A DNA stretch of 64,000 nucleotides, taken from assembly GCA_030264375.1 (NCBI GenBank), contig JASCQW010000072.1, forward strand, positions 81,633,150 to 81,697,149, read 5' to 3'. Below the pieces are notes generated by a model. The model ran no database searches. It worked only from the letters and a program-made list of their open reading frames with translations, and was not told the origin of the DNA. This document shows positions 1 to 50,855 of this stretch, one piece after another (position 1 is the first letter of the stretch; each line of letters opens with the position of its first letter). The DNA comes from Carcharhinus longimanus. Lineage: Eukaryota. Both the position numbers and the translations under genes were made by a program.

Positions 1-147
1 TGTGAACACAACTCCCACTCACCTGATGAAGGGGCAGTGCTCTGAAAGCTTGTGGCTTGTGCTACCAAATAAACCTGCCGGACTTTAACCTGGTGTTGTG
101 AGACTTCTTACTGTGCTTACCCCAGGACAATGCCAACATCTCCACAT
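1..147 (+). mobile_element. Penelope-like element terminal repeat, family 2 (cut by window start)
   Basis: CCTGATGAAGG..GAAAGCT..CCAAATAAACCTG..GGACTTTAACCTGGTGTTGTGAGACTTCTTACTGTG; the same sequence recurs at 9779-9832 and 31246-31455. Confidence 0.7.
19..55 (+). ncRNA. Minimal type-I hammerhead ribozyme motif, intact core
   Basis: Stem I TCAC/GTGG; CTGATGA 23-29 plus extra A; stem II GGGGC/GCTCT; GAAA 44-47; palindromic helix III AGCT; UH = TT at 50-51. Confidence 0.65.
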
Positions 148-9140: not shown

Positions 9141-9354
9141 CATCTAAAGTGACCAATTATGGCCAATTTCAGGGTTTTGCTGTTTTCATGCCATTAGTGC
9201 CATGATGCATTTATGTATGTCATATTTTAACTAAAGATAGTGGGAACTTCTTGATTGTGTTCCACTTTTAATGTAATATGTACACACTGTATTTTATTTT
9301 CCAAAATCCAGTGGCAAAGGATAAAACAGCCTATTTTTACATATTTTTAAAAAA

Positions 9355-9678
9355 ATGTTACCTTTCTTCCAGCCATTCCTACCCCCACATCTTCATCTGT
9401 CACAGTTTATCCTCTGATTTTAGTTTTTCTGCTCTTTGGCCATTCACACTCTTTGTTCTCTCTATGGGCTGCCATTAGCAGTCTTTTCCTCTGGTTTCTG
9501 TGACTATGGCTCATCTTTCATTCCCTCCCTCTGCAGTATAAATATCTCCCACTTTGTATGACTTTTAGCTTTGACAAAGGGTCACCTGGACTCGAAACGT
9601 CAACTCTTTTCTCTTCTTACAGATGCTACCAGACCTGCTGAGATTTTCCAGCATTTTCCCTTTTGGTTTCAGATTCTA
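9355..9678 (+). mobile_element. Penelope-like element 3' terminal region, family 1
   Basis: Pyrimidine-rich UTR, then GGGTC..GACTCGAAACGTC..ACAGATGCTACCAGACCTGCTGAGATTTTCCAGCA; this terminus follows the PLE ORF at 20990-23750. Confidence 0.8.
9567..9605 (+). ncRNA. Minimal hammerhead ribozyme motif, U3-A8 core variant
   Basis: AGCT-TTGACAA-A-GGGTC-ACCTG-GACTC-GAAA-CG-TC-AACT; palindromic helix III ACGT; GUC cleavage triplet. Confidence 0.55.
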
Positions 9679-9778
9679 NNNNNNNNNNNNNNNNNNNNNN
9701 NNNNNNNNNNNNNNNNNNNNNNNNNNNNNNNNNNNNNNNNNNNNNNNNNNNNNNNNNNNNNNNNNNNNNNNNNNNNNN

Positions 9779-9832
9779 TATCAAATAAACTTGTTGGACT
9801 TTAACCTGGTGTTGTGAGACTTCTTACTGTGC
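9779..9832 (+). mobile_element. PLE family-2 terminal fragment after gap 9679-9778
   Basis: CAAATAAACTTGTTGGACTTTAACCTGGTGTTGTGAGACTTCTTACTGTGC matches 66-116. Confidence 0.75.
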
Positions 9833-23525: not shown

Positions 23526-23759
23526 TCCGTATCTTTTGTTCCATGACATTTCTGTCATTTAATCTCTCCCACCCACTACTTATCCCAGACCTCACTTTTA
23601 TTCTGCCTACCCCTTCCTGCCTTTCAATGGCAAAAATCCCATCACATTTCTGCCTTCCTTCAGTTCTTAATACACATATTTGACATGAAACGTTAAATCT
23701 GTTTCTCTACAAATGTTTCCAGATGAGCTCAGTCTTTTCAGCAGTTTGTTCAATCAAAT

Positions 23760-28768: not shown

Positions 28769-31245
28769 AAATATTCTTTTGGATGAAAGGTTGCTTTGTA
28801 AGTTACCACTTGCAATTTTCAGGTAAAAATGGATGGAGATGGCATTGCATGCACTCTAGGATTTGTAGCAAGTAGTGAGTGATCTAACCACAGGTCGCAA
28901 GATGGTGTGGATGCTCAGGAAAATTACAGATTCTCTTCTTGGAGAATTTTCTGTGGGAGTAAAGGACTGTTCTTGGTTCTACAGAAACACTGCAGCCTGC
29001 TGCATGCCTGTGCCCGATCTCCTCCAGCAGTGACAATCCTTCAGCACCTTGAACCTGCTTGACTGTGGGAACCAACTGATTTCCTACCATTCTACTGTTG
29101 GCAATCTCCAACAAGGCACCTATTGTTTGCTGATGGTGTCCAAATAAGCCGAATCTAAGCTTCATTCAGGTCTCCTGACATCAGCTGATCTGTTGACTTC
29201 ATGGCCATTTTGGGCAAATATTAAATATTTTCCTTCACTTCTTAAGTGTTCTACAAGTCATGAGTTAGCCATGTTAGCTATTTCTACCAACATACCAGGA
29301 TGGAAAAGATCTTCTGAACCCTTCTCTGATTTTAAAGATTATTTACTTTTACGAACATAGATTTTGTCAGAATGGCTGGCACAAGAATTTTGACTTGTGC
29401 ATGTGTTCTGATGGTCACTCATCTCATTACTGTTGATATGAATCAGTATCAAATTTGGTTCTAGAATTCCTTCCCAAGATCAAAGACTGTAATATGTAAT
29501 GCCTGCTCTTAGTTTCTTTTAATGTCTACTTTGACTTGCTCAAAATATCAGAAGACAAAACCATGGGTACTGATCATCTTTATATTACAACTACACTTCA
29601 AAAGAACTTCAGAGGCTATAAAATAGGAGGTTGTGAAAGATACAATAGAGAATGAATCAGTTTCAAGTAGGCAGTTTCAATTCAACCTATCAGTTACATA
29701 TTTCTAAGCTGTGTGCTTTTCTTGTATGTAATTGTTAAACTATACACTTCAGAATTTTAGTAATATGCACATCTTGACAGTTTCACAAAGCTTTTTCAAA
29801 TAATTGTCTCAGTAGATTTATGGTCACTCCCCATAACTTTGAAATGTTTGCACCAAAAATACTTTCTTTGGTCCAAACTGCCTGAATTGAGTTGATATAA
29901 ATGCTAGTGAGGCACATAGTCTGTAGGCTGTAGTAATACTGCACTCAAGTTTTGAATTCTAGCCATCAATTGTAACCCTCACTGCCTTGTTCATATTGCA
30001 GTTCTTCAACATAATGTTTCTCTCACCAGACACTGCAGCTCTTGAACTCTCAAAATGCTCATCAATCTAATGCTCTGCTGTATCCTTTTCAAGTAGTTGT
30101 CTTAATGGGTGTTGTGACATCTGACAAATTAGGCAGTGGCTTGTTTAAATAGTTTGCCATCTAATGAAATGGTTCCAATGTTTTTGTTGCTCATTTCTTC
30201 GCCCCATAAAGGTTGATAAAGTTTTTGCTAAGTGTCCTCAATTTTATATTTTGAACTTGTCACTTATTTGCATTCTCTTACTTGTTACATGATTTTTTTC
30301 AACAATATTTGATTGTATACCATGTTCACTTCAGAAAATAACATCCATAGTTCCTGCCAATGTCATCTAACAGCTTAAAAAAGTGTTGGTAATTTCTGGA
30401 ACTGGTATGATCTCTGGAAAAGTCATTTTGTATTAACACATCTGTCAAAAGATCCTTAAGTGTGCACAACTTTAAAGTTTTTTATTACCAGCCACCTCAA
30501 TTAGCATCATGTGATTTTAGCACTTGATAAACATGACACTACTCCCTCTGCAGTATGCACTGAAAAATATATATTTTCTCAAAGATTTACACAGAGCAAA
30601 ACAAGTTGTAACATTGAGAATATAACTTCATACAATGGATGATTCAGATTGAGTTTGTTAACACAGATCATAAATTGTAAAGGTAATGGTCATTAAAGGT
30701 TACGGTAATTTAAGTCGTAAATTATATTCTCATTCATTCACTGGCCTCAAATGTTCAGGCTTTGTTTTAGTATGCTTTCTCTATTCTATCTACTGCATTA
30801 CATGCAAAGTGTAAATATCCTTCCCTTAGCGGATGTATGACAGATTGAGCATTTGATTTTAGTTGTTTGGTCTGCTCTCTTGCTATTTAACTCGAATCCT
30901 TTTAAGTATATCAACGTTGTTGTCACTTTAGCATTGATTGCTGGTAACTGCCTTACTTTGTTAAATCAATCTTATCTGCAGGCATTGTGGAAGGCCAAGA
31001 ATGGGCTGTGTTTGCTGTACTTTGGTAAGTCTACTTTCCTGTACATATTATATTTTACTTTTACTTTGATATTTTGATCAGGGTATGATCCTTGGCTCAA
31101 TTTTATATTCAGTCAAAAGATTGTGGAACAATGTACTGAACTTCTGTACTTAAATTTCTTTTCTCCTTGATTTTCTTACGAGAATTATTTTAACTTGCTT
31201 TTTTTTAGCAAAATGGTGTCATTTTCCCCTGTTGCTACGTTTTTG

Positions 31246-31455
31246 ATGTGGAGATGCCGGCGTTGGACTGGGGTAAACACCGTAAGAAGTCTCACAACAC
31301 CAGGTTAAAGTCTAACAGGTTCTTTTGGTAGCAAAAGCCACTAGCTTTCATAACGCTTGCTGCCGCCTGACAAGGGGGCAGCGTGTGCTCCGAAAGCTAG
31401 TGGCTTTTGCTACCAAATAAACCTGTTGGACTTTAACCTGGTGTGGTGAGACTTC
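31246..31455. mobile_element. Fold-back mini-PLE (family 2) with 14-bp TSD
   Basis: ~65-bp inverted arms at ~31284-31349 and ~31392-31457; flanks TTGCTACGTTTTTG (31232-45) and TTGCTACATTTTTG (31456-69). Confidence 0.85.
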
Positions 31456-31799
31456 TTGCTACATTTTTGGCCACACACAGTATTTGTCCTCATGTAACTT
31501 ATCTTTACAATGCTTAATCAGTGTTAACAAACTCAGTCGAAATCTTTCATGAAAATGGTAGTACTATTCAATTATCAGTTACTGTATTGTCAGTACTGCA
31601 GCTTATTTTGCTGTCTGGTGCTGCTCTGCAAATAGTTCTCTAAAATTCTAAGCACTTTTAACCACATTACTCCGAGTGATCATCTATTACACAAAAACAA
31701 TTCTCACTTCAATATATTCTGAATACTGAGAACTCTTTCACATGCTCATCAAGTTCTGTCTGAACTTAAAAGTTTTAACCTTTTTTTTCCCTCACTTAT

Positions 31800-50469: not shown

Positions 50470-50855
50470 CTTTGCTGATTTGGTTTTTGCTCTGGTTTCT
50501 TTCATATTTCCTTTATGTGTGTTCAGGTAGCAGCTTTCCTGCCATTTGCATCCCAACCTTCCATTACCATTCATTTTGGCCCCCACATGAAAAACAGCTT
50601 GTCATTTGATCTTTTCTGCCTTGCACCTTATCATAGAGCTTCAATTTTGTTCTTGCTACCACCGTGCTAAATCCTGCTGGAGACCTTATTGAAAACCTAT
50701 TGGATTTCTAACTTTTATCAAGTCTGAAGAAAATACTTCATCTGAAACTTTCAATTATTTTTCTCCCCACATAAGCTGCCAGAGCTAATGAGTATTTAGA
50801 GCACTTTCTGTTTTTATTTCTAATTCCCGCATTTGCAAATAATTTGCTCTTGTAT
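50470..50855 (+). mobile_element. PLE family-1 3' end, degenerate
   Basis: CTGAAGA..GAAAC remnant; CTCCCCACATAAGCTGCCAGAGC..TTTCTGTTTTTATTTC. Confidence 0.65.

Follow-up and report, generated by a model that had tools for sequence, protein, structure and literature searches.

Does the unusual catalytic core of a hammerhead motif in the genome of the shark Carcharhinus longimanus record the decay of one old repeat, or a change that was inherited and kept by selection for self-cleavage? The motif lies at positions 9567-9605 of the 64,000-nucleotide stretch of DNA analysed here (the window) and has U3-A8 where its relatives have C3-G8. The first-pass annotation had suggested that this double change may reflect selection for ribozyme function in a subfamily of Penelope-like elements (PLEs). 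Comparison of sequences across the genome leads us, with good but not complete confidence, to the following reading: the motif represents a type I hammerhead of minimal form within the pLTR of a PLE, and in the youngest subfamily of that element U3-A8 has replaced C3-G8 in a compensatory change that was likely selected for self-cleavage.

The 39-nt sequence reads exactly as it was annotated, and the 5-bp stem II, the ACGT palindrome, the GTC triplet and three of four stem I pairs are all present in the window copy (Table 1). It has the features of minimal type I PLE hammerheads, namely Y3-UGA-N-R8-A and GAAA boxes with a Watson-Crick 3-8 pair, an extra base between positions 9 and 10.1, G10.1-C11.1, a stem II of at least 4 pairs, a palindromic 15.1-16.1, no monomeric helix III and an NUH triplet (GTC). 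The cut is predicted to fall between 9601 and 9602, in an architecture like that described in PMC4209133, and helix III is predicted to form only in a dimer, through the ACGT palindrome. The pattern matches once in the window and in 0 of 100 shuffles, and reversed-pattern controls gave 0 matches in the 2.68-Gb genome, which argues that the motif is not a chance occurrence. A scan of the window with Rfam returned no hammerhead at E<=5; since a C3-G8 motif at window positions 23-55 is likewise overlooked, this miss is not attributable to U3-A8 and reflects the minimal architecture. Directly behind the cut site, at 9606-9625, a pyrimidine tract ends in CAG-ATG and resembles a splice acceptor.

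Table 1. Features of the U3-A8 hammerhead, its carrier and a related copy in the window
Feature	Position	Strand	Remark
5'-truncated copy of the 3' end (pLTR) of PLE subfamily A	9353..9676	+	3' end meets an assembly gap at 9679
TATA-like box TATAAAT	9537..9543	+	First T 30 nt before first hammerhead base; predicted pLTR promoter
Stem I, 5' strand	9567..9570	+	9567 is the predicted transcription start and a hot spot of family 5' junctions (13/79)
Core U3-U4-G5-A6-C7-A8-A9 (TTGACAA, 9571-9577) and extra A (9578) between positions 9 and 10.1	9571..9578	+	
Stem II	9579..9593	+	5 pairs (9579-9583/9589-9593), one G-U; G10.1-C11.1 at base; 5-nt loop
G12-A13-A14-A15.1 (GAAA, 9594-9597), palindrome ACGT (9597-9600), GTC triplet (9599-9601)	9594..9601	+	
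Stem I, 3' strand	9602..9605	+	3/4 pairs; C9569-A9603 mismatch
Conserved pLTR segment 3' of the hammerhead	9606..9676	+	
Decayed copy of C3-G8 family C (CTGAAGA, 50724-50730)	50720..50817	+	Stem II no longer pairs

The window copy itself is probably a dead fragment that does not cut. Stem II folds with a pair probability of 0.75 in this copy. Position 9603 is A here and G in 50 of 55 subfamily copies, which breaks one stem I pair: the majority sequence of subfamily A has 4/4 pairs and the window copy 3/4 (the norm for type I PLE motifs is 4-5), and the pair probability of stem I is at most 0.02 in the window copy vs 0.25-0.52 in the subfamily. No matching partner motif lies within the 64-kb window. 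The A at 9603, the loss of stem I in folding and the missing partner together argue that the copy is inert.

The carrier is, as judged from its coding remnants, an EN+ PLE. Positions 9353-9676 match the majority sequence of subfamily A at 88% identity in 332 aligned columns, from -226 to +106 relative to core position 3. In four long copies the sequence continues upstream for 1.6-2 kb, and the broken frames there contain RT motifs, a linker of the form CX4CxxC and a GIY-YIG-type end; an RT with the DKG motif followed by a C-terminal GIY-YIG can be read in them. One locus (L326) is a whole unit: each of its two pLTRs carries the U3-A8 motif, the two motifs lying about 3.2 kb apart on either side of an RT/EN remnant; the pLTRs are direct in L326, L318 and L307 and inverted in L313 and L315. 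Family 3' ends cluster at +95 to +104 (35/80 copies) and at +130 to +139 (22/80), about 35 nt apart, which corresponds to the PLE tail (10 of 90 copies were dropped at gaps). A Pfam search of 10 decayed element fragments found no relevant family. Homologues of the fragments carry GIY-YIG (54% identity) or RVT_1 and GIY-YIG, and among those with a name the best are proteins of cartilaginous fish; the RT of P0008 was dropped as evidence for the RT, as it gave no alignment with the element RT fragment. The clade is probably Neptune: a CX2-5CxxC linker precedes the endonuclease in the L150 and L326 fragments, and in the parts of PMC8557442 covered here such a linker marks Neptune, with a linker motif also in Nematis. 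A non-LTR retrozyme was considered and rejected, given the single match in the window, the absence of a tandem array at the locus and the continuation of long copies into an RT/EN remnant.

If U3-A8 had arisen by independent decay of the window copy, it should be private to it. The age of the copy and its broken stem I might invite this reading, which is effectively refuted by 608 exact matches to the U3-A8 core with identical flanks in the genome and by its presence in 52 of 55 copies chosen blind to the core. The other combinations with identical flanks are rarer (C3-A8 166, C3-G8 129, U3-G8 27; the four account for 930 of 1,003 matches). The core-blind set consists of 90 copies picked by a downstream word, of which 55 cover the core; the three remaining ones are two U3-G8 and one gap, and none has C3, in a set where true CpG positions keep the majority base in only 64-73%. 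A DNA search of the animal's own genome (2.68 Gb; 5,645 candidates, 40 scored) gave the same picture, with 27 TTGACAA and 1 TTAACAA among the 28 central copies parsed from 30 fetched loci (the parser missed 2). The downstream 33-mer has 2,529 exact matches, and capture-recapture puts the copy number at about 27,000, a rough guide only, resting on 2/90.

The copies fall into subfamilies that can be told apart by sites outside positions 3 and 8, subfamily A having the triplet GUC and subfamily B GUU. By these sites 29/30 fetched C3-G8 copies and 24/30 fetched C3-A8 copies are of type B, and 19/27 U3-G8 copies of type A. The CpG at positions 7/8 of B decays both ways (71 CTGATGA and 5 TTGATGA among the first 100 listed of 169 matches with N7=T), so that C3-A8 is explained as decay and the A8 of subfamily A as inherited. 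C3-A8 was accordingly rejected as an intermediate master. An intermediate subfamily combining U3-A8 with GUU was rejected as well: it has only 42 matches in the genome, and these are mutated copies of A and of B mixed together. The majority core of an older family, C, is C3-G8. In a tree built with masking of positions 3 and 8 (53 rows, 98 columns, bootstrap not settled; 10 of 22 C rows omitted as lacking the downstream motif), A including the window copy forms one clade (99/99), which lies within B when the tree is rooted on C. The median non-CpG divergence is 6.3% in A vs 9.4% in B (p=0.025). From this nesting and the lower divergence of A, U3-A8 reads as the inherited state of a large subfamily derived from C3-G8 relatives, with A the youngest subfamily and B and C its C3-G8 relatives. 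The core CTGAAGA that had been offered for comparison is indeed present at 50724-50730; the copy that carries it is a decayed member of the older family, C, with identities of 74% to C and 59% to A, and the comparison is properly made with the sister subfamily B.

There are hints that U3-A8 is shared with related species. In contigs of other organisms (four runs, four studies), 9571 and 9576 showed no alternative letter among the 40 of 54 rows listed, in which 9585 and 9603 did. In run X4 (organism D), window position 9601 (N17) is T in 2088 of a depth of 2156, with no alternative at position 3 or 8 among the rows listed, which may point to another species with a U3-A8 lineage whose triplet is GUU.

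Subfamilies A and B differ at 6/39 motif positions (the two bases of the 3/8 pair, two loop bases, N17 with U->C, and a stem I wobble turned into a Watson-Crick pair), and all six differences preserve the fold; the stems covary among A, B and C. In a simulation with B ancestral and a simple mutation model, all six were fold-preserving in 0.4-0.8% of random placements, and jointly with the 3/8 swap in 0.03-0.17%. As all six changes keep the fold and this is expected in under 1% of placements, we consider it likely that the compensatory U3-A8 was kept by selection for the predicted self-cutting, in a single evolutionary event. The proposal of the first-pass annotation thus fares well, with the qualification that it concerns one event and a state found subfamily-wide. 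The likely path would lead from C3-G8 through a U3-G8 wobble or a CpG-driven C3-A8 to U3-A8, in either order. B with C3-G8 and A with U3-A8 represent a natural before-and-after pair, in thousands of copies. Such a pair argues for PLE hammerheads as parts maintained by selection rather than passengers of the elements; the function of these hammerheads is called unclear in the part of PMC8557442 covered.

The strongest competitor, which we nonetheless consider unlikely, is neutral hitch-hiking: the master of A may have carried a catalytically irrelevant motif in which CpG decay produced G8A and a chance mutation C3U, the element then carrying both changes along as it spread. The swap is indeed one event only, and G8 lies within a CpG in B. 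Moreover, the next 65 nt behind the motif have 7 A/B differences and are thus conserved like the motif, while the upstream 170 nt are only 56% identical; as a consequence, constraint on the ribozyme cannot be cleanly separated from constraint on the whole segment. No sampled copy starts at the cut site, and an anole PLE inserts in vitro without need of cleavage (PMC11167929, as far as its accessible text goes), two points that also weigh against selected self-cleavage as such. Against hitch-hiking, two core changes would strike positions 3 and 8 and remain complementary with a chance of about 1-2%, the other nine invariant core bases are unchanged between A and B while all six changes keep the fold, and the same swap occurred independently in Schistosoma PLEs according to the accessible text of PMC4209133.

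A, B and the window copy are all predicted to fold at lowest energy into an inactive hairpin, through pairing of the core GAC with the cleavage triplet, and this too speaks against selected self-cleavage. The competing hairpin is the lowest-energy fold of the majority sequences of all three families (A, B and C). It could hold the ribozyme off until a protein binds. One may ask whether the fold was selected as a structure, for example as a protein-binding, promoter-proximal or translation signal at the 5' end of the RNA, and not for cutting. The motif coincides with the predicted transcript start and uncleaved RNA appears to be the template, both in agreement with such a role. We regard it as quite improbable all the same. 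The 3-8 pair forms in the catalytically active conformation of the hammerhead, and the triplet remains NUH in both A (GUC) and B (GUU). In the available parts of the two relevant papers, low in vitro activity of minimal PLE hammerheads is reported and other functions are not excluded (PMC4209133), which favours the structural role, and a C3G/G8C double mutant partly rescues a PLE hammerhead (PMC11167929), which disfavours it.

With selected self-cleavage as the preferred reading, the position of the ribozyme in the transcript bears on how it would act. The spacing from the TATA-like box to stem I is 30 nt in both A and B, although 12/30 positions differ. Among 79 copies with a 5' junction (of 90, 11 dropped at gaps, all from the first matches on one contig), the 5' end coincides with the first base of stem I in 13 and lies at most 2 nt away from it in 25, and 0/79 begin within 2 nt of the cut site, where there is no pile-up. 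Subfamily B has the same 5' peak (18/63 copies, chosen for an intact motif). The spacing, the junction peak and its absence at the cut site suggest that the transcript begins with the ribozyme and that copying proceeds from uncleaved RNA. The peak could alternatively stem from template switching at the AGCT palindrome. Three of the 13 junction copies (L159, L215 and L229) are insertions that fold back perfectly around the AGCT of stem I, which suggests self-priming of the cDNA end.

In the mechanism that we propose, the element RNA would start at the first base of stem I, and reverse transcription from the tail would run off the 5' end of uncleaved RNA, the main insertion template. Helix III would arise from pairing between the ACGU palindromes of two motifs, in the same transcript or in two RNAs, and the cut after GUC would follow, probably slowly and with help from an element protein. 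From the side of the genome, the junction statistics support the in vitro finding of uncleaved RNA as template, and they point to a start site at the 5' end of the ribozyme. A more speculative extension, which we rate as doubtful, is that the cut would remove the capped first 35 nt of the transcript and act as a dimer-triggered self-decapping switch, limiting or timing expression and not preparing the insertion template; U3-A8 would then show that catalysis was selected though the cleaved RNA is not inserted. A literature search, to which most subscription papers were inaccessible, found no paper on PLE hammerheads of sharks or on a start site at stem I.

The novelty that had been implied for U3-A8 did not hold, since PMC4209133 describes it in PLEs and PMC3088659 in other natural hammerheads, and the motif of subfamily A is a fresh example of the known U3-A8 PLE hammerheads. 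Comparisons with these systems draw on the accessible text of the papers cited. Minimal U3-A8 hammerheads occur in the pLTRs of Cercyon PLEs of Schistosoma mansoni, with about 1,300 matches (Cervera and De la Pena, 2014; PMC4209133). The shark motif shares with them the type I minimal design in a pLTR, U3-A8, the extra base between 9 and 10.1, G10.1-C11.1, a palindromic 15.2-16.2, a short stem I, the occurrence mostly as single dispersed copies, and motif pairs about 3 kb apart in full elements. It differs in its cartilaginous-fish host and 5-bp stem II, and in that a subfamily tree locates the swap, which is the mark of the youngest subfamily. Terms for shark or skate are absent from the two supplement files of PMC4209133 that were searched. 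Supplement file 2 shows a U3-A8 core for S. mansoni(4) and a C3-G8 core for S. japonicum, the two having a nearly identical stem II, a parallel swap between sister families.

Natural U3-A8 hammerheads cited as active in vitro (Perreault et al., 2011; PMC3088659) have the same core covariation; the passages covered do not deal with minimal, dimer-dependent PLE motifs, and for a minimal PLE motif the literature covered contained no test of U3-A8 activity. In PAc, a Poseidon element of Anolis carolinensis, uncleaved RNA is used as substrate and a protein assists (PMC11167929). The shark element resembles PAc in its pLTR hammerhead, in a 30-40 nt tail that results from the use of two 3' end sites and, as inferred here, in having unprocessed RNA as substrate; PAc differs in having C3-G8 and in belonging to the Poseidon clade, the shark element having the CX2-5CxxC linker of Neptune and Nematis. 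With Neptune-type EN+ PLEs (Craig et al., 2021; PMC8557442) it shares the DKG motif, the RT, the CX2-5CxxC linker, a C-terminal GIY-YIG with two internal cysteines, tandem and inverted pLTRs and the tail, a likeness of motifs.

The window holds other repeats of this kind. Eight further decayed pLTR fragments of the same superfamily lie at 23710, 25657, 38081, 47979, 48288, 50770, 63804 and 10149; they were found by the downstream motif, and none of the eight retains a whole hammerhead. A second repeat family, probably another PLE family, has its own minimal hammerhead, the C3-G8 motif at 23-55 (core at 23-29, with an AGCT palindrome); it also occurs as an inverted pair at 31245-31460 and, beyond the gap, as a fragment at 9779-9830.
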